Origin: Camelus ferus
Taxonomy: Eukaryota
Direction of reading: 5' to 3'
Assembly: GCF_009834535.1 (NCBI RefSeq)
Contig: NC_045707.1
Location: forward strand, 19,406,001 to 19,470,000
Length of the DNA: 64,000 nt
A program made the translations under genes and the position numbers. The notes under the pieces were generated by a model. It had not been told where the DNA came from, searched no databases, and saw nothing but the letters and a program-made list of their open reading frames with translations. Shown piece after piece: positions 1 to 20,190 of this stretch. Positions within the stretch are counted from its first letter, which is position 1; each line of letters begins with the position of its first letter.

Positions 1-844
1 CAAATAAACAAACATATACCTTGAAATTAAATATTCTATTACAAAAGCTTCTCTCCTGACATTGCAATGTAAACCTTACCATTTAATGAGAAGTCACAGA
101 ATGAGTGATATGAAAATGAATAAACTGGTTCAATTTACTGAGGGAAATCTTAGCTTCCTTTTAAAATAAATGCATTGTTATTATTCCTGTTATTCAGGAA
201 GGCAAACGGCTTTCATTGCTATTTTATGGATTATTCCAATAAGCTGACAAAATGTAGCTTCCATTAAGTGAATCCTTGTGTAAATAAGAGGCAAAATATA
301 AAAATATAATGTGGGATAGAGAGAGGGAGAGAATAATAAAATAATTTAGCTGGGAGAAATGTTGAAGAAAAGTTGTTTCATGGAAGATAACGTTTTATTT
401 TAGACATTTGTACAGTTTGGTGTCCTTAGCCTATGATGTAGATCCAACCTACCCAATGTCCACTCAGCCTCCTTTCTACCCTGGACTCGCTAATATCTGA
501 GGAAGTCATGGCAATAAATCCATTATCTGTGGCTTCAGAGGAGGAGCAGGAGGTTGGGAAAGTGAACATGAGAGTGGAAACTCAGAAACCTGTCACGTTG
601 TTAAAGATTTAACTCCAATGACTTTCAGATTTGGGAGACATACTCATTTAAGTGACTTTTCTCCTGACACATCTGGCTTTTCTAAATTACACTAGAGAAA
701 AATAATACAAGAATTTGGGTGATAAAAATTAGGAAATGAGATACTTATATTGGGATTGAGGAAGAAAAGACAAGGTGTTTCCCAATGGGAAGGGAAATTT
801 GGGTGGCATTTCTATTCCAGTATGTCTTAGGTTTCAGAAAAAAA

Positions 845-985
845 CTAGATTAAAATCCCTGCTCTTCCCATTTAGGTTCTGCGATTTGGATACGAGTTTT
901 AAAAATCGTTTTAGCCTGTTTACAATCTGTCAAATAGGGATTTTATAAAGAAATATTCTATGTGAAACAGACTCTGGCATATGGT
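845..985 (+). mobile_element. MIR fragment (paralogous copy at ~18637-18790, minus strand)
   Basis: AAATCCCTGCTCTTCCCATTTAGG...ATCTGTCAAATAGGGAT resembles the MIR core. Confidence 0.5.
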
Positions 986-1173
986 AAAAATCTTACTTTA
1001 AAACATGTCATCTAGTTTCATTAACTTGTTTAAAAATCTCCTAAATTAAATTAGCATGACATAATAGTTGACTTCCAGAGGCAAATTCCAATTCTATCTG
1101 TGGGTAATCCTCTTTTCTTTAAGTCTTCTCTTTGTGTTTCCTCTTGTAGTTGACACAAGAGAAGAGAAAACAA

Positions 1174-2113
1174 ATGAGGAACTACACAGTAATAAGAGAG
1201 TTCATCCTCCTGGGACTGTCCTGATGACCCACAGCTTCAGGCTGTCATCTTCATCTTTCTGCTCATCACCTACATGCTCAGCATCACTGGGAACCTGACC
1301 ATTATCACCCTGACCCTGCTGGACTCCCACCTCCAGACCCCCATGTATTTCTTCCTCAGAAACTTCTCCTTACTAGAGGTGTCATTCACAACTGTCACTA
1401 TACCCAGGTTCCTGAGCACCATTGTTACAGGAGATAAAACCATTTCCTTTGATGACTGTATGGCTCAGTTATTTTTTTTCATTCTCCTGGGAGTCACTGA
1501 ATTTTACCTATTGGCCGCCATGTCCTATGACCGCTATGTTGCCATCTGCAAACCTCTGCATTACTTGACCATCATGAACCAGAGAGTCTGCATACTGCTT
1601 GTCTTTGCTTCTTGGCTGGCTTCATTCTTAATTATATTCCCATCACTCATGCTATTTATACAGCTTGATTACTGTAAGACCAATGTCATTGACCATTTTA
1701 CTTGTGATTATTTTCCTTTATTACACCTTTCCTGTTCAGACACCAAATTCCTAGAGACAATGGGTTTTTCCTGTGCTGTGTTCACTCTAATGATCACTTT
1801 GGCACTGATATTCCTGTCCTACATATATATCATCAGCACAATTGTGCGGATTCCTTCTACCAGTCAGAGGACAAAGGCCTTTTCCACGTGTTCCTCCCAC
1901 ATGATTGTCATCTCCATCTCCTATGGCAGCTGCATCTTCATGTACATTAATCCATCAGCAAAGGATAGAGTGTCTTTGAGCAAGGGTGTGGCTGTGCTCA
2001 ACACCTCAGTAGCCCCCATGCTGAACCCCTTTATTTACAGCCTAAGGAATCAGCAAGTGAAACGAGCCTTCATGCACATGGCAAGGAAGATTGTATTTTT
2101 CTCAAGCAAATGA
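1174..2113 (+). pseudogene. OR6C1: OR6C1-like olfactory receptor pseudogene, +1 frameshift after codon 16
   Basis: ATG at 1174 reads [16 protein letters not shown] then TGA (1222-1224). The intact paralogue at 16588(-) has CTG TCC GAT GAC where this copy has CTG TCC TGA TGA. The rest of the receptor ([46 protein letters not shown]) continues in the +1 frame, which is the 279-aa ORF from 1274. Confidence 0.88.
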
Positions 2114-3639
2114 AAAAACAAATGTGCTGTTTCATAAATCAGAGGCATAATGAGAGCAATTAAATGAAAATCACGGCCTTTCAAAATCTGTTAATTTCCA
2201 CATAGCCTCCCATGAGTTATTTTTCATTGCGTATAATTTTATTGCCAGTGTGTTATCAAGAATATTTGTACATGTATATATTTTTCTTTTTTTCCTTTCA
2301 AATTCTTCATCTATATATATATTTATTCATTTTCCTTTTAAATTCTCTTCCTTCTCTCATGCACTTCCCTTCCTTTGGGCTGGTCTTTCCACTCAGTAAC
2401 TATGAGACTAAACTCAGTGCATTTTTGAAATCTTTTTTAATTCCAATTTTTCAGAATAATTTTTAGAAAATGAAAGAAAGACAGAAAGAGTTGCGGCAAG
2501 AGCACACAAGAGAGAACTGCGTCTTATGGTTCACCAGGACACACCCTTTCTAGAAATTGAGGAAATATTAAATCACGTTTAACATTATTTTTAATTTAGT
2601 ACCCAATGACCATGAACAAAGTCTGACAGTCTTCCTAGAATGTAACACATACTATCCCCGCCACATTGTGGACCGCTTAGTAAGTATGTGAAAAACAGGA
2701 CAACTGAAAGAATAACGTAATTATATTTTTTTGAGAAATCAAAAAACATTGCTCACTACTAAGTTTAAATTTTCTGTGCCGTATAATTTATCAATTCGAA
2801 AAACAATTATGACTTCATAATTGCTTAAGGAAAACTATGAAATAGCCCCTCCATTTTGGAACTCCATAATTCATTTATATACCATAAAAATTCTTAATAA
2901 AATCCTGAAGAAATAAATATTAATGGATACCAAGTATGACTATGTTTGCTGTGGCTCTGTGGTATATTTAAATAAATGATTAATGTTAAACTGGTTTTTT
3001 AATAATCAATAGCTAAGAGTTTTATAACTTTCTCATGTTTGTGGCTCTTTTGCTATAATGGCTTACACATACAATTTATTTAATTGCCTGCTTAAATGAC
3101 ACACCTAATTAATAGAAAGGAAGGCGCAGACAATGGCAAAGTTGTACTGTATTTAAAACTGAGTTTTTTTGTTAAAAAGCTTATGTTCTGTCTATTTGAA
3201 GCATCGCATTGGACAATTTACTGATTAGAAATTATATGACAATCATTACAAAATCATGCAGTTCTGGACCTGAACTTTTTTTTTTCTGTTTTCCATGAAG
3301 TCAGAAGCTGAAATAATAATGATGGTTACTTAAAATCATCCTAAATTTTTTTAACCATTTTTCTTCAAAACAAAGGCTGTAATTGTAACTCATTGAGCCA
3401 AATTCTTATTGATATTAATATACTATACACAATTCAGAGACCTACATCTATGATTTGCAAAAAAATAAAACAAAACAACTTATAGAAAAAGTACTGTGGA
3501 GACTTCCAGTTTGTAGGCAGGTCATGGAATTACTATTTCCTTCCTTCATACTGAAACTATAGTTCCTAAACTAACTGGAAACATTCAAAAATAATGAAGT
3601 TTAGACTTGATTGAAGATTGTAGGTTCTTAAGTACTCAA

Positions 3640-5210
3640 TAAAAATATACCATAAAATGCAGACGAGTATAGATCTGAGAATTAAAAGAACTGTAAAACT
3701 ATTACAAAAGATACGAAGGAGTTTATGCTGGTATTTTCAGATGATACAGCCCTCTGTATAACTCTATACAAACTCATTAGTGGTTATTACACGTTTTGAA
3801 TCTGTATCAGGATTTTGATTGTCAATACTAGAGGTCAACAAACTTTTTCTGTAAAGGGCAATATATTCATAATTTAGATTTTGCAGGTCATAGTGTCTCC
3901 CATGCAGCTCTCCCCCTCTGTAGTATCTCTGTAGCTATAAAAAAATTGTAAATGAATGAGATTAAGTATTTTCTGATAAACTGTTGAACAAAAATAGGTG
4001 GTGGGACAAATTTGGCCCATGGACCATAGTTTGTCCACCCTTGTCTTAGACTTTTCTGTGAACACTGGTCCACATATTATCTCATTTAATATAATTTGAC
4101 TAAAATGCGAAAATTCAATAATAGATGTAAGATGTTAACATTTTTAACTCCAATTTTTATTTTTTACTTTGAACTTGAATGAAAGCAATCTTACAAAACA
4201 TGTCCAGAGGAAAAAAAGAGGTAAATGTTTCTAAATCATTTTTGGATGTTTGTATAATTCTTAATGTCAAATGATAATATGAGAAATGAAAAAATCACCA
4301 GCAATTTGATTCATAAATTCGAAGATAAAATAGTAAAAGAAATTAGCAAAACTCCTATGTCATGTTGAGAACAATTTTATCCCAAAGGTAATTTATCTCT
4401 AAAAAGTCTATTTGTGGTATTTACCACATTAAAAGAGTAAAGATGGGGAAAAAAAGGTTAAAGAGAGAAAATCACACATTCTGTTAAAATCAAATGCTCA
4501 TTTATCATTTTAAAAAAATCTCTTAGTAAAATAGAACAAAACATTGTTTGAGTAGCATAAAGACCTGACTAGATCATCACAATCAGGTATGCTATATGCT
4601 CCTTAATTGGCTCTAATTTGAACAAGTCAACTATAAAATGGTATTTTGGGAAAATTGGGGACATAAGAGTTTGAGCAAAGTGATAAATAATATCAAAGAT
4701 TTTTTGTTAATTTTGCTAGCTTGAAAATTGCATTGTGGTTAAGCAAGAATACAAACATGTATTTTAGGAATTCATTCTGAAAATACACAGGAGTGAAAAG
4801 GTATGATGTTTAGGTGTTGCTTTGAAATACACCAACAAAAGAAAAATAAACTTTTAAAAAGACAGCTAAAATAATTTTTTAAACTTCATATTGTTTGAAT
4901 CTGCTTGATCTGTATGAGAAATTCATTTCTCCACTTTCCTATCTTAGTGTATATTTGAAAATATTCATAATAAAAATTACAGCAAGGATCATGCTTAATT
5001 TTTTAATCAGTAGCAACAGCCTTGGTAAAATCAGCTACAAATGAGAATGACCACTGTCTCTGCTTTTATTCAGTGCTCTGCTGTAGGTTCTATCCAGGGC
5101 ACTAGCACAAGAAAACAATATATTCAAAAGTATTGGAAAGGGGGAAACAACAACAAAAAAAGCCTTCTCTGCAAGTAACATGATTTTTCTCCCAGGGCCT
5201 TAGTATATTT
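3640..5210 (+). mobile_element. Old L1 (L1ME-like) ORF2 and 3' fragments, mirrored in arm B at ~12560-14110
   Basis: Degenerate ORF2-like and 3'UTR-like A-rich sequence with no open frame. Confidence 0.55.
3829..4043 (-). mobile_element. MER58A-like hAT-Charlie MITE (arm A copy)
   Basis: Degenerate terminal inverted repeats; reverse complement of the 13714 copy. Confidence 0.8.
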
Positions 5211-5270
5211 ACATTAAATGTTTCTTTTACCAGCAAATCTCCTCTCCCAGATATCTGCATGGTTAACACC

Positions 5271-11974: not shown

Positions 11975-13713
11975 AAAAACAGTTGTTAAGTGGCATAATA
12001 TAAAATAAAAAAGAAAAATGAACACTAAAAAAAAAATACCTTAAATATATCCAATTCATTATTTCTTTGTCATACTAAGTTGTCTAGCCATGATGAAAAT
12101 ACACATTTATTTGAACACTATTTTAAAAGCTAAATCAATGTTGTGTATGTTATTATATAAATTATATGTGTTTATTTTGGGTAAAATGTTTTTTTTAAAT
12201 GTTTTTTTTAAAGCTGCTGATTACCGTGACATTGGAACCATTCTAAATTATTTTAAAGTATTTATTTATTTAAAAAAAATTTATTGAGTATCTACTACAT
12301 GGTAGATGCATGTTCTGCACAAGGAGGATTAGTGACTTCTGGTAAATGTTTAACAACTGCCTGTTGGCAGATGGAGAAGAGGAGCTGATTTGTAGAGTTT
12401 GTCAGTTTCTATGATGGTCTCTCACCATAGCAGATTTCAAGCTACAAATGTGCCCTTGACTGACCACAAAATTGAGTAGACTTGCACAATTGGCTTCTGG
12501 TGTTAACCATGCAGATACCTGGGAGAGGAGACTTGCCAGTGTAAGAACATTTAGTGTAAATACACTAAGGTTTTAGGAGGAAAATCATGTCATTTGCAAA
12601 GAAAGATTTTTTTTGTTTCCCTCTTTCCAATAATTTTAAATATATTTGTTTTCTTATGCTAGTGCCCTGAATAGAACCTCCAGCAGAGCACTGAATAAAA
12701 GCAGTGACAGTGGTCATTCTCTTCTTGTAGCTGATTTTACCAAGGCTGTTACTATTGTTTAAATAAATTAGGCATATTTGCTGTAATTTTTAAATCATAT
12801 GCTAGGATAGAGAACTGGAAAAGTAAATCTCATGTACAGATCAAGCAGATTCAAAAACTATGAAGATTTTTAAAAATACTTGCTTTAACTGTCTTTTTAA
12901 AATTTCTTAAAAATTTGTTGACATATTATAAACCAGAACTTAAACATATCTTTCACTCCTGTATACTTTCAGTATGAAATTCCTAAAATACAAGCTTGTT
13001 TTCTTGCTTAACTACAGTGCAATTTCCAAGCTAGGAAAATTGACATGCACACACACACAAAATTTTGTTGTCATTTATCACCTTGCCCTTACTGACATAT
13101 CCCCAGTCGTTCCAAAATATCATTTTATACTTGACTTGTTCAAATTAGAGCCAAACAAGGAACATACAGCCTACCTGGCTGTGATGATTGAGTCATGTCT
13201 TTAATGCTACTGAAACAATGTTCTGTTCTATTTTACTAAGAGATTTTTAAAAATCATGAATGGCATTACATTTTATCAAAGGAGGTGTGATTTTCTTTTT
13301 TTCACTTTTTTTAATCTTTAATTTTTTAATGTTTAAATTCCTCAAGAACGCTTTCTAAATATCAATTACTTTTGGGATAAAATCATATGGAACATGAAAT
13401 AGTAGTTTGCTAATTTCCTTCAGTATTTTATCTCCTAATTTAACAGTCAAGTTGCTGGTGATTTTTCATTTCTCAGATTATCTTTGGATACCAAGAATGA
13501 CATAAAAGAACAAAAATGAGTTAGAAATGTTTACCTCTTCTTTTCTTCTGGAACTGTTTTATAAGATTGCTCTCGTTCATGCTCATTATAAAAAAATTAA
13601 AGTTGGTGTTAAATTTAAAAATCTTACATCTATTACTGAATTTTCACATTTTAGTCAAACTACATTACATTAAATGAGAACATGTGGGTCAATGTTTATA
13701 GAAAAATCTAAGA

Positions 13714-13936
13714 CAGGGGTTGAAAAACTATGGTCCACGGGCCGAATTTGGCCCACCATATATTTGTGTTCAATAGTTTATCAGAACACACCTAAGCCCG
13801 TTCATTTACACGTTGTTTATAGCTGTATTCACACTACAAAGAGGGAGAGTTGAGTAGTTGCATAAGAGACACTATGACCTGCAAAATCTAAATTATTAAT
13901 GTATTGTCCTTTACAGAGAAAGTTTATTAACCTCTC
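13714..13936 (+). mobile_element. MER58A-like hAT-Charlie MITE (arm B copy)
   Basis: CAGGGGTTGAAAAACTATGGTCCACGGGCCGAATTTGGCCC...GAGTTGAGTAGTTGC...CCTTTACAGAGAAAGTTT follows the MER58A consensus. Confidence 0.85.
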
Positions 13937-15649
13937 ATATCGATAATCAAAATGCTCAGATTCCAAACATTTACAATAACCACTAAGGAGGCCGTATAGA
14001 GTGTTACAGAGGGATGCATCGTCTCCTAAGACCAGCATAAACTCCTTCATATCTTTTGTAATAGTTTTACAGTTCTTTTAATTCTCAGATCTATACTTGT
14101 CTGAATTTTATGGTATATTTTTATTGAGTACTTAAGAACCTACAATCATCAATCAAGTCTAAACTTCATTATTTTTGAATGTTTCCAGTTTAGTTTAGGA
14201 ACTGTAGTTTCAGTATGAAGGAAGGAAATAATAACTCCATTACCTCTCTGCAAAATGCAAATGTCACTTTTTAAAATACGTTGTTTTGTTTGTTTTTCAG
14301 CACATCATAGACCTGAGTCTGTCAACTGCATATACTACATGACTATCAAGGAGAATCTGGTTCAATGAATTAACAATTACAGCCTTTGTTTTGCAGAAAA
14401 AATGGTTAAAAAAATTTAGGATGATTTTGAGCAACATTATTATTATTTCAGGTTTTGAATTCATGGAAAATGGGAAAAGAAAAGTTTGGGCCAGAATTGC
14501 ATGATCCTATATGATCATCACAGAAATCCTAATTAGCATGTTTTCCAATATGATGCCATATTCTGATGCTTAAAAAAGAACATAAATTTTTTTTAATTTT
14601 AATTTTATATACAGTGAAACTTTGCCATTGTTAGCTATTTTCTACCAATTTAACTAGGCTTGTCTTTTAAGTAAGCAATTATGTAAATAGTATGTGTAAT
14701 CTATTATATTAAAATAGCCACAAATATGAGAAAGTTACAAAACTCTTAGCTACTGATTATCCAAAGACCAGCTTAACATCAGGCATTTGTTTAAATGCAC
14801 TACTGAGCCACAGCAAATGTAGTCATATTTGGCATCTAGTAATATTTATCTCTCCAGGCTTCTATTAAGAATTGTTATATATGTAAGTTAATTTTGAAGT
14901 TCCAAAAAAAAAATGGGGCGTTTCATACTTTTTCCCTGAGCAACTGTGTATTCAAAACAGTGTTTTGAATTGATAAATTATATGGCACAGAAAATTTTAA
15001 ACTTAGTAGTGAGAAATGTTTTTCATTTCTCAAAAAATATAATTACATTATTCTTTCAGTTGTCCTGTTTTTCACATAGTTACTAAGTGGTCCACAATGT
15101 GGCGGGGATAGTATGTGTAACATTCTAGGAAGACTGTCAGATTTTGCTTATGGTCATTGGGTACTAAATTAAAAATAATGTTAAACATGATTTAATATTT
15201 CCTCAATTTCTAGAAAGGGTGTGTCCTGGTGAACCATAAGACGCAGTTCTCTCTTGTGTGCTCTTGCCCCAACTCTTTCTGTCTTTCTTTCATTTTCTAA
15301 AAATTATTCTGAAAAATTGGAATTAGAAAAGATTTCAAAAATGCACTGAGCTTAGTCTCATAGTTACTGAGTGGAAAGACCAGCCCAAAGGAAGGGAAGT
15401 GCATGAGAGAAGGAAGAGAATTTAAAAGGAAAATGAATAAATATATATACAGATGAAGAATTTGAAAGGAAAAAAAGAAAAATATATACATATACAAATA
15501 TTCTTGATAACACACTGGCAATAAAATTATAAGCAATGAAAAATAACTCTTGGGAGACTATGAGGAAATTAATAGATGTTGAGAACCCTGATTTTCATTT
15601 AATTTCTCTACTTTATGCCTCTAATTTATGGAAGAGCACATTTGTTTTT

Positions 15650-16588
15650 TCATTTGCTTGAGAAAAATACAATCTTCCTTGCCATGTGCATGAAGGCTCG
15701 TTTCACTTGCTGATTCCTTAGGCTGTAAATAAAGGGGTTCAGCATGGGGGCTACTGAGGTGTTGAGCACAGCCACACCCTTGCTCAAAGACAGTCTGTCT
15801 TTTGCTGATGGTTTAATGTACATGAAGATACAGCTACCATAAGAAATGGAGATGACAATCATGTGGGAAAAACACGTGGAAAAGGCCTTTGTCCTCTGAC
15901 TGGTAGAAGGAATCCGCACAATTGTGCTGATGATATATATGTAGGACAGGAATATCAGTGCCAAAGTGAACATTAGAGTGAACACCGCGCAGGAAAAAAG
16001 CATTGTCTCCAGGAATTTGGTGTCTGAACAAGAAAGGTGTAATAAGGGGGAAAAATCGCAAGTAAAATGGTCGATGACATTGGACTTACAGTAATAAAGC
16101 TGTATGGATATCATAAGTAATGGGAATGTGATTAAGAATGAAGCCAGCCAAGAAGCAAAGACAAGCAGTATGCAGACTCTCTGGTTCATGATGGTCAAGT
16201 AATGCAGAGGTTTGCAGATGGCAACATAGCGGTCATAGGACATGGCGGCCAATAGGTAAAATTCAGTGACTCCCAGGAGAATGAAAAAAAATAACTGAGC
16301 CATACAGTCATCAAAGGAAATGGTTTTATCTCCTGTAACAATGGTGCTCAGGAACCTGGGTATAGTGACAGTTGTGAATGACACCTCTAGTAAGGAGAAG
16401 TTTCTGAGGAAGAAATACATGGGGGTCTGGAGGTGGGAGTCCAGCAGGGTCAGGGTGATAATGGTCAGGTTCCCTGTGATGCTGAGCATGTAGGTGATGA
16501 GCAGAAAGATGAAGATGACAGCCTGAAGCTGTGGGTCATCGGACAGTCCCAGGAGGATGAACTCTCTTATTACTGTGTAGTTCCTCAT
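15650..16588 (-). CDS. OR6C1: Olfactory receptor OR6C1-like (312 aa), intact copy
   Basis: The true ATG is at 16588 (MRNYTV...). The track's TTG start at 16615 is the first base after the splice acceptor. All OR motifs are present and the sequence resembles human OR6C1 as I recall it. Confidence 0.93.
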
Positions 16589-16781
16589 TTTTTTTTTTCT
16601 CTTCTCTTGTGTCAACTACAAGAGGAAACACAAAGAGAAGACTTAAAGAAAAGAGGATTACCCACAGATAGCATTGGAATTTGCCTCTGGAAGTCAACTA
16701 TTATGCCATGCTAATTTAATTTAGGAGATTTTTAAAACAAGTTCATGAACATAGATGACATGTTTTAAAGTAAGATTTTTA

Positions 16782-18622
16782 TGAAAGAGCCTATATGATC
16801 AAATAATCAAACTTACCCTGTAAACAAAATTAATCTTGATTTGGCTATATTTAATAAAAATGAAGGTAACATTAAAGAGAAAAAGATTTTATTTTAGTGG
16901 ATATTAAATTCCAGTTTTGTTAATTGAGGTCTGTATTTACTAAGACTCACTTCCCAAATCATTGCTTGCTGTTGTTACATTGCGGCAAAGGTTAATTAAA
17001 TTATTAAAGACACTCTAGGTTTATTTCTGAAGCTCAGTAATCTATCCTTGGTGGAAGATCTGATGCCCCATCACCTTCAACCAGGGGATTATACATACTG
17101 GAACAGGCATGACTTAAAGAACTGTCTCCAACCTGGATGGAAGGACCCTTTATCAGGTACTCTTAACCAGACCATGCACAGTGAAACCTAAAGGAAATTG
17201 ACTTTTGGATTAATTTCCAGTCAGAAAGAGCCCTTGCACTGGCCTACAGAGTAGTGCTCACCTTAAAACAATGCTCAAATGGAGAAGAAGCTACCAGGCC
17301 ACGATGAGAAGACGACAACATCTGAGGTAGACAGTTGACCGAAGACACCAGACCAGGCCTGTTTACCAATTACTTTGATAATTGTTCATACCTTTGATTA
17401 TGAACTAATCCAATTGTTAGGTTTATGGTAAATTACCTATATCTAGTACTTCTGTGTTACCTTGGCGGGTTTCCCTACTCCAAGGCTCTCACAAGATAGC
17501 CCTCAGAAAATTTATTCTAAAAAGAAATTATAGTTCTGTTTAGGCCACTGTTGACATTACAAGGTGGGAGGCCTCACCTGGCCAATTAATAATACCTGCT
17601 CTGAGCCTGACCATGAATATGAATTTTCTTATAAGATCACTCAAGCTCAATCAGAAACACAAGGAAAATTTTAACCCAAAAAGGTAACTTCTCGACTATT
17701 AAATTCTTACTCGTGACTTTATTAACATTACTAGCTGTATTATTGATACCCTGTCTATTTTATAAGATTGTTCTCTCTTACATTTTCCAGTGTGTAACTA
17801 GGCCTCCAACAAGATTGATGATGGCTAAACATCTTGAGGAAAACGATAAAATTTACAAATTTATAACTGCATAGAATAATTTTAATAGTGTGATTCTAGG
17901 TATGGGAATGAGCAACAAGGGGTAAACATTTCCTGGATCATAATACACTAGTAAGACAGGTGATCCAGAGAATTTTTAGTATCAACAGGCCTGATCCAAA
18001 AACTAGCACTTTGAGTGGCATGTCAACAGATACTTCACCAGATATAGGAATGAGCCTTCCTAGCACCATGAGACAAAATTGGTCATGAAATGTCTCCCAA
18101 AATATTGGTCGAATTTAGGACCAAGGGGGAGCACTGTCAACTAAAATACTGCAATCATATCAGTAAACAAAGAATGCTGAAACCAAGTCATCAGCGGCTG
18201 CCACCACCCCCCAGTGAGAACAGGCCTACAGCCCAGCCTCTGTAGCCACTCACAATGGTGCAACTCTGAGGGGACTCAGAATAAGAAAGGACAGGATACT
18301 GGCCCTAGATAGCCAGATGCTTGTCAAAGGAATGAGTTAAATGAGCCCACATGTTTCCTTCCTCCCATACATAGAAAAGCACTAAATTCTTTAACTTGAG
18401 ATGTCTGGTTTTCTTTAGATACCAAGCACTCTTTTATTGTTCAAAATACCTGGTCTTTGTTGTAAAGCTCCTATATATCCAACCTCCTCCCCCACCTCTT
18501 CAGAGCAGTCCCTCAGAGCAATCTGAGGGGCTGTCATCCCGGCTCGAGTCCTCTTGCCAAATAAAACATAACTCTAAAAAATAAATGAATGAATGAATGA
18601 ATGAATGAATGAATTAAAAAAT
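16782..18622 (+). mobile_element. 5'-truncated ERV1 (MER4-group-like) internal fragment plus U3-R LTR and A-rich tail, flanked by a ~15-bp TSD
   Basis: Degraded integrase C-terminus at 17069-17168 (HHLQPGDYTYWNRHDLKNCLQPGWKDP/YQVLLT). Purine tract at ~18123-18131, LTR from TG at 18135, AATAAA at 18560-18565, tail at 18576-18622. TSD AAAGTAAGATTTTTA (16767-16781) versus AAACTGAGATTTTTA (18623-18637). Confidence 0.85.
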
Positions 18623-20190
18623 AAACTGAGATTTTTACCATATGTCAGTGTCTGTTTCAAATATAATGTTTCTTTATAAAATCCCTATTTGACTGAGTGG
18701 AAACAGGTTAAAATGATTTTTAAAAATCCTATCCAAATCACAGAACCTAAATGGGAAGAGCAGGGATTTTAACCTGGGTTTTTCTAAAACCTAGGAATAC
18801 TGGAATACAAATGCTACCTGTTTACTTCTTAAAAGCCTCCCCCTAAATGACTCCCTTCCCAATGGGAAACACCTTGTCTTTTCTTCCACTCCAATAAAAG
18901 CATCTGATTTCCTAATTTTTGTCACCCAAATTCCTGTAATATTATTTCCTAGTGTAATATAGAAAAGCCAGATGTGTCAGGAAAAAGGTCACTCAAATGG
19001 GTATGTCTCCCAAATCTGAAAGTCATTGGAGTTAAATCTTTAACAACGTGACAGCTTTCTGAGTTTCCACTCTCACGGTCACTTTCCCAACCTCCTGCTC
19101 CTCCTCTGAAGCCACAGATAATGGATTTATTGCCATGACTTCCTCAGACTTAGCGAGTCCAAGGGAGAAAGGATGTAGACTAGACACTGAGTTTTGGATC
19201 TGCATTATGGGTCAAGGACACCAAACTGTACAAATGTCTAAAATAAAATGTTACCCTCCATCAAACATTTTTTCTCCAAAATTTCTCACATCTAAGTGAT
19301 ATTAGTATTCTCTCACTCTATATATATTCTACTATCTCATATATTTTTATATTTTGCCTTTTATCTACATCAGGATTCACTTAATAGAAGTTCTATTTTG
19401 TCAGCACATTAGAGTAATCATGAAATAGCAATGAAAACCATTGATTTTGTCTTCCTAAATAACAGTAGTAATAATAATGCATTTATTTTAAAAAGAAACT
19501 AAGTTTCCTCAATAAATTTCCTCAGTACATTTTCATATCAGTAATTCTGTGAATTCGCATTACATGGTCAAGTTTACATTCCAATGTCAGGAGAGAATTT
19601 TCTACAATAGAATGTTTAATTTCAAGATACACGTTTGTTGATTTCTGGTATGTGATACATCGTAATACTATGAAATTTCTCAACTTTGTTTTCTTCCCTT
19701 ACATACGTGAGCTTTCTTTTCACTTACTTCACTTTCTAGCAAAAAACTATTGCTGCTTTCAAATTAAGGAAAATTCCAGTTGAAGTGGATGGTGGCCAAG
19801 GCTACTGCGAGAGCATGTGAAGTTCACAAGAAAATGAACTTATTCTTTCACTATTCCTCAGAGACTAGAGAAAAAGTCTTAACAGCACTTAGAAGAAAAA
19901 CAGACATTATAAATACATATTCTGTGAATAAATTTATGGCCATTCAAGAATGATAGATACTTACAAATGTAAAATTCATTGTTCTCAATGAACAATCTTC
20001 TGGGATTAATAGCTGTGTGTGATTCTTTGATCTGTAAACCATTTCTGGGATGTTTCTGGTAAAGTAATCAATGCTATATCTAAGTCAGTAAGACATCCTT
20101 TCAGACTTTCCTTCCTAACTATTCATTCACATTTTTTCCTAGTCCTATGTGATTTATGATAACAAGCTTCATATTCCTTTCTATTCCTTC

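Follow-up and report, generated by a model that had tools for sequence, protein, structure and literature searches.

Processed pseudogenes that L1 makes from ordinary cellular mRNAs are frequently truncated at the 5' end. A retroviral counterpart is known from catarrhine primates in the HERV-W (LTR17/HERV17) processed pseudogenes (PMC5016936, PMC5537654, PMC11359688). As described in the examined parts of these papers, such copies have a 3' LTR cut to U3-R, a poly(A) tail, a TT/AAAA-type site and a long target-site duplication (TSD) (PMC5016936); full-length ones begin at R-U5 (PMC5016936, PMC5537654), and spliced ones are known as well (PMC6995185). A review, in the portion consulted, names HERV-W as the only group of human ERVs that L1 has mobilised and leaves the reason open (PMC5537654).

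Here we analyse a 64,000-nucleotide stretch of Camelus ferus DNA (C12:19406001-19470000, the window), which contains a 1841-bp insert at 16782-18622. We are highly confident that the insert is a 5'-truncated, A-tailed, U3-R-ended ERV1-like copy, likely made by L1 target-primed reverse transcription of an unspliced polyadenylated RNA. Judging by the pattern of target sites and TSDs, LINE-1 would be the mobilising enzyme.

Structure of the insert and its target site

The features of the insert and its surroundings are collected in Table 1. The preliminary description of this DNA, which had taken the insert for an L1-type processed retrocopy, mentioned a purine tract, U3-R and an A-rich (TGAA)n tail, and all three can be read there. 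It had also found neither a 5' LTR nor U5, and comparison with the family bears this out at both ends. Upstream of the insert's 5' junction, more shared family sequence is present in 28/29 other internal-bearing copies and missing here; the insert is thus 5'-truncated, and its ERV internal portion corresponds to about the final 1.35 kb of an internal region that is non-coding and ~6.2 kb long. At the other end, 28/29 other top LTR matches extend for ~34 nt beyond where the insert stops, reaching the end of the LTR. Hence the family LTR does not end naturally at ~18575, as the preliminary description had allowed it might. The insert stops 10 nt after AATAAA (18560-18565), which is 1-2 nt before the modal poly(A) site of tailed copies, and a 47-nt tail follows, laid out as A5-T-AAA-(TGAA)n-TTAAAAAAT; sister copies of the insert have pure A tails. 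Since the family splice acceptor within the insert is unused, the window copy derives from unspliced RNA. For the putative integrase remnant reported earlier, one of three window frames matches the MLVIN_C profile (PF18697) with E 0.087, under the Pfam cut-off, and no integrase match was obtained in any of 12 frames from three other family copies.

Table 1. Positions of features in the window
Feature	Position	Strand	Remark
Empty site in paralogous inverted arm A	985..999	-	15-mer identical to left TSD
Intact 312-codon ORF	15650..16588	-	Olfactory-receptor motifs
Left TSD AAAGTAAGATTTTTA	16767..16781	+	TTTT before it; same letters as arm A empty site
ERV internal region, 3' part, 5'-truncated	16782..18134	+	85-92% to 39 other scored loci
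Family splice acceptor AG	17056..17057	+	Unused in window copy, used in spliced copy L108
Candidate integrase C-terminal remnant, broken	17069..17152	+	PF18697 E 0.087, sub-threshold
Purine tract preceding LTR	18123..18131	+	Read directly from sequence
U3 of 3' LTR, TG start	18135..18501	+	TATA-like box 18472-18477
R region, ending at poly(A) site, without U5	18502..18575	+	Start inferred from 5' ends of 16 retrocopies
A-rich tail decayed into (TGAA)n	18576..18622	+	Read from sequence
Right TSD AAACTGAGATTTTTA	18623..18637	+	13/15 identical to left copy

The flanking 15-bp duplication noted in the preliminary description was verified, as was its single occurrence in arm A, where the 15-mer lies on the reverse strand (999-985), equals the left copy and is preceded by TTTT. 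Arm A (2-5270), which is paralogous to 12499-19644 in inverted orientation, can be aligned with it on either side of the insert. Only five places in the window match the 15-mer at ≤2 mismatches, three of them being the two TSDs and the arm A site. The target reads TTTT/AAAG in both arms, an L1-endonuclease-type sequence. The hallmark of integrase-type insertion, a full LTR with a terminal CA and a TSD of 4 bp, is absent from the insert. The two mismatches between its TSD copies count against the L1 reading. As arm A is cleanly empty, the insertion most likely occurred later than the arm duplication.

The source ERV family

A first look through the 2.09-Gb genome with the LTR gave 3256 candidates; we scored 40 of these and fetched 30. 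The intact LTR end, searched as an exact pattern, occurs 430 times. Among 59 LTR loci examined, 49 could be scored for TSDs: 31 had exact 4-bp duplications, 12 matched at 3/4 positions and 6 at fewer. Two LTRs, 85-98% identical to each other, are carried by 15 of the 21 loci fetched at length, which span 6.5-7.8 kb. A near-consensus splice donor, GG|GTGAGT, is present in 13/16 loci, 164 nt downstream from the poly(A) signal in R, and the acceptor AG in 20/21. The poly(A) signal itself lies only ~55-75 nt beyond the start site.

Searches for gag, pol and env in three forward frames each of two proviruses (L091 and L164), one with 98% identical LTRs, returned no Pfam hit, frameshifts lowering the sensitivity of such searches. 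This ERV1-like family therefore looks non-coding and non-autonomous, in agreement with the non-autonomy proposed earlier. ERV1 clusters without coding domains have been described from alpaca in the part of a camelid survey examined (PMC8605555), their tie to the window family not being established. From the fixation of its copies we infer that the LTR family was transcribed in the germline.

Many family copies are clustered on contigs C11, C14 and C36. At two loci (L171, C11:67.09 Mb; L173, C14:62.74 Mb), primer-binding-site and leader sequence follows the 3' LTR, suggesting tandem proviral arrays.

Tailed copies across the genome

A search for the poly(A) site with A's directly after it found 22 distinct loci (none with the reversed pattern as control). 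Later pattern searches added 17 and then 4 more, and two (L155 and L178) were met incidentally. Three of these 45 candidates were dropped: L127 has no LTR homology, L185 has 14 nt only, and L096 has an ambiguous ~30-40 nt. The 42 kept have ~70 nt or more of LTR homology, and every count of tailed copies given here is a minimum. TSDs were formally tested in 35 copies, a set that omits L127, L096, L112, L113 and six loci analysed later: TSDs of 8-20 bp adjoin the 5' junction in 26/35, as against 8/150 mismatched-pair controls. The other nine have no adjacent TSD, though in L128 a 14-bp TSD lies at a greater distance. An L1-type pyrimidine/purine target is found in 18/26 tailed copies (13% background, 33% at purine-run starts), while 8/26 target sites fall outside the L1 motif. 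With the same core pattern, 15 tailed ends compare with 430 intact ends, ~3% of exact-match LTR 3' ends.

The 42 copies fall into five classes. Four are 5'-truncated with internal sequence (the window copy, L178, L102 and L101), and even the longest of the simple, unspliced truncated copies cover no more than 0.6-2.1 kb out of ~6.8 kb. One, L108, is a full-length spliced copy with a 12-bp TSD, running from the R start through U5, leader and a GT-AG junction to the acceptor, then U3-R and the poly(A) tail; the genome search for a second spliced copy matched L108 only. Twenty have 5' ends scattered in U3 or near R, one of which (L128) holds ~100 nt of other sequence within its TSD. Two are read-through copies in which host DNA from upstream is enclosed by exact TSDs of 13 and 14 bp (L112, 9.2 kb, and L113, ~1 kb, respectively). 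The remaining fifteen consist of R only.

The 9.2-kb tailed insertion L112 (C37:71.62-71.63 Mb) holds a whole provirus with an intact 5' LTR and ends at the 3' poly(A) site. It also includes what we take to be L1-like sequence, and is likely a copy of an L1-ERV read-through RNA. A tailed LTR piece at L110 (C14:49.41 Mb) appears, by eye, to be flanked by a ~65-70-bp duplication, far beyond the usual TSD. In six tailed copies (L100, L103, L110, L120, L125 and L126) the 5' end falls at LTR positions 283-312, which may be either a second region of transcript starts or a hot spot of truncation.

These copies bear on two other accounts of the window insert. That a complete provirus integrated and later lost both ends by deletion, the tail being an unrelated microsatellite, deserves almost no credence. 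The family is indeed old and often rearranged, 6/21 fetched loci being without a second full LTR; however, deletions should remove flank bases, and the junctions instead give back the exact arm A site, with 15 bp duplicated. Integrase copies show 4-bp TSDs, and trimming explains neither the tail nor the dozens of independent tailed copies that share the end base. It is also very improbable that an existing tailed copy supplied the insert at the DNA level, as a fragment used to mend a break or through gene conversion. Such capture might be expected in a duplicated olfactory-receptor cluster with apparent conversion (coding identity 96.5% versus 86-87% in non-coding DNA), but no donor with the same 5' end or tail occurs among the 45 tailed candidates, the TSD fits the local target and the site matches the L1 motif. 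The processed-retrocopy interpretation of the preliminary description accordingly stands on its long TSD, tail and TTTT/AAAG target and on dozens of independent copies sharing the end site; the genome-wide count it had called for yielded at least 42 tailed copies, 26 of the 35 tested having 8-20-bp TSDs.

A provirus and its retrocopy

One tailed copy can be paired with its parent. L178 (C11:69.64 Mb) is identical to the provirus L177 (C3:41.85 Mb) at 2079/2136 columns (97.3%), the next-best match reaching 91.7%, and both contain a private ~240-bp A-tailed insertion with its own TSD. Unlike its provirus parent, L178 carries a tail and a 15-bp TSD. It has diverged from the parent by 2.7%, whereas the parental LTRs differ from each other by 7.4%, which suggests that the provirus was still transcribed long after integration. 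Cleavage in L178 lies a few bases deeper into U5 than the modal site.

Copies confined to R

Among 35 tailed copies with a 5' end inside the LTR (a different set from the 35 of the TSD test), 15 begin within 5 nt of one position, where 0.24-0.31 are expected (Poisson P about 1e-20). The 5-nt interval was picked post hoc and L104 was placed by eye, neither of which affects the result. The R-only copies start at the same position as the spliced copy L108, and the R start lies 30 nt past the TATA-like box in 33/34 intact LTRs. The formal TSD test included 13 R-only copies, 11 of which have adjacent TSDs. Their three R length classes (~71, ~78 and ~90 nt) and a median pairwise identity of 84% (maximum 92%, 105 pairs) point to many sources and no single master, and argue against a SINE-like master-gene family.

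We considered a cap-derived extra G as a further sign of transcript starts. GG precedes the R start in 8/16 R-start copies (by eye) and in 8/47 intact LTRs (Fisher p 0.017); we do not rely on this signal since intact LTRs bear the GG variant too. Of the fetched GGGAGC matches, 28/30 are LTR copies with U3 and no A tail.

Likely, R-only copies come from transcripts begun and polyadenylated within one LTR. In HIV-1 and foamy virus, the poly(A) site of the 5' LTR is suppressed in a U1-dependent manner, and in MoMLV the control is leaky, according to the part of the source examined (PMC3694450). The same text places the HIV-1 donor 195 nt past the signal; in the camelid family, which likewise has a poly(A) signal in R and a donor downstream, the distance is 164 nt. 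By analogy, U1-type suppression may have operated here as well. Solo LTRs, which have no such donor, would then lose suppression; this would be the likely reason why they, or leaky 5' LTRs, gave R-only RNAs. With moderate confidence, we propose that solo LTRs or leaky 5' LTRs produced R-only micro-transcripts, capped and polyadenylated, in the germline, and that L1 fixed these as a distinct, overlooked class of copies of ~80-95 bp. The literature searched (titles and abstract openings, mostly of non-subscription journals) gave no description of R-only or short LTR retrocopies.

R-only copies might instead stem from full-length RNAs or retrocopies, through R-to-R recombination, a reverse transcriptase jump from the 3' R to the 5' R, or nuclease trimming to a hairpin. 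We consider this origin rather unlikely. A full-length RNA does have R at both ends, and R opens with a predicted stable hairpin (–36 kcal/mol over 77 nt, for one copy and with no shuffle control) that could stop 5'-3' decay. However, a stall of reverse transcriptase would be expected at the hairpin's 3' foot and not at its 5' foot, and the short reach of the unspliced truncated copies, given above, speaks against abundant full-length precursors. Collapse from R to R is further disfavoured because only 1/30 leader-bearing loci begins at R, namely the spliced L108, with both R copies kept.

Age and state of the window copy

No source provirus was identified for the window copy: its best match is 90.6% identical (141 mismatches in 1800 columns), hence the copy is old. 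The 5' junction is bridged by contigs from two DNA runs of one organism (A) and by one contig of a second organism (B) with 30 flanking letters, one under threshold, so the insertion is probably common to both. This check covered 4 of 24 listed sequencing runs, one of them RNA; no listed contig in the four runs bridges the 3' junction. At position 16783 the assembly has G and three DNA runs have A, the family base, so that untemplated bases at the 5' junction are excluded; the G is a private variant or an assembly error. In RNA run X15 family sequence is present, with no listed piece specific to the window locus, and contigs cannot reveal RNA ends. Having lost the 5' LTR, PBS and U5, the window copy is most likely inert.

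Judging by its motifs, the window is a cluster of olfactory-receptor-like genes, and on the same grounds we take the neighbouring 312-codon ORF to be an olfactory receptor. The insert sits ~190 nt upstream of this ORF in the opposite orientation. Arms A and B are 86-87% identical in non-coding DNA; the coding regions (1176-2110 versus 15651-16590) are 96.5% identical, which may reflect selection or gene conversion. The olfactory-receptor-like ORF of arm A (1166-2110, +) has a frameshift near its N-terminus, the arm B copy being intact, and may be a pseudogene or contain an assembly error.

Mechanism and comparison with known systems

The following course of events would account for the window insert. 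In germ cells or early embryos, the 5' LTR of a provirus would have driven its transcription, and the RNA would have been cleaved just past AATAAA in the 3' LTR and polyadenylated. L1 ORF2p would then have cut the target and begun, primed on the tail, a copy that broke off after 1.8 kb. Other family RNAs likely went the same way: spliced mRNA (1 copy), LTR-ended read-through RNAs (2-3) and, probably, R-only RNAs of ~75-95 nt (15 copies).

Tailed copies of this kind locate, to the exact base, where an extinct element started its transcripts, spliced them and polyadenylated them, and with the R-only class, genome sequence is all that is needed to test for premature polyadenylation inside LTRs. 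If our reading of that class is true, R-only stubs are a fossil record of where LTRs start transcription and of poly(A) suppression that failed in 5' LTRs, and 'solo R' elements, mislabelled as LTR fragments, are to be expected in other ERV families.

Compared with pseudogenes of cellular mRNAs, the inferred mechanism and the hallmarks are the same; the template here is an ERV RNA, the ends of which map the LTR start and poly(A) site. With HERV-W, as far as the text examined describes it, the camelid family has in common the U3-R end, the tail, the long TSD, a TT/AAAA-like target and a truncated or R-U5 start. It differs in its host lineage and in having no detectable gag, pol or env. The tailed share is 15 versus 430 LTR ends in the camelid family and 135/213 elements in HERV-W, figures that are not directly comparable as solo LTRs are left out of the latter, and R-only copies make up about one third of the camelid tailed copies and are not described for HERV-W in the text examined. 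What is new relative to the HERV-W precedent is the non-coding source family in another order, together with the R-only class. An unrelated, non-coding ERV family of another mammalian order shows HERV-W-like, probably L1-driven mobilisation, though seldom; this suggests that RNA abundant in the germline was captured in the ordinary way and not through a special signal. On their shared hallmarks, the window copy belongs with the HERV-W-type processed pseudogenes.
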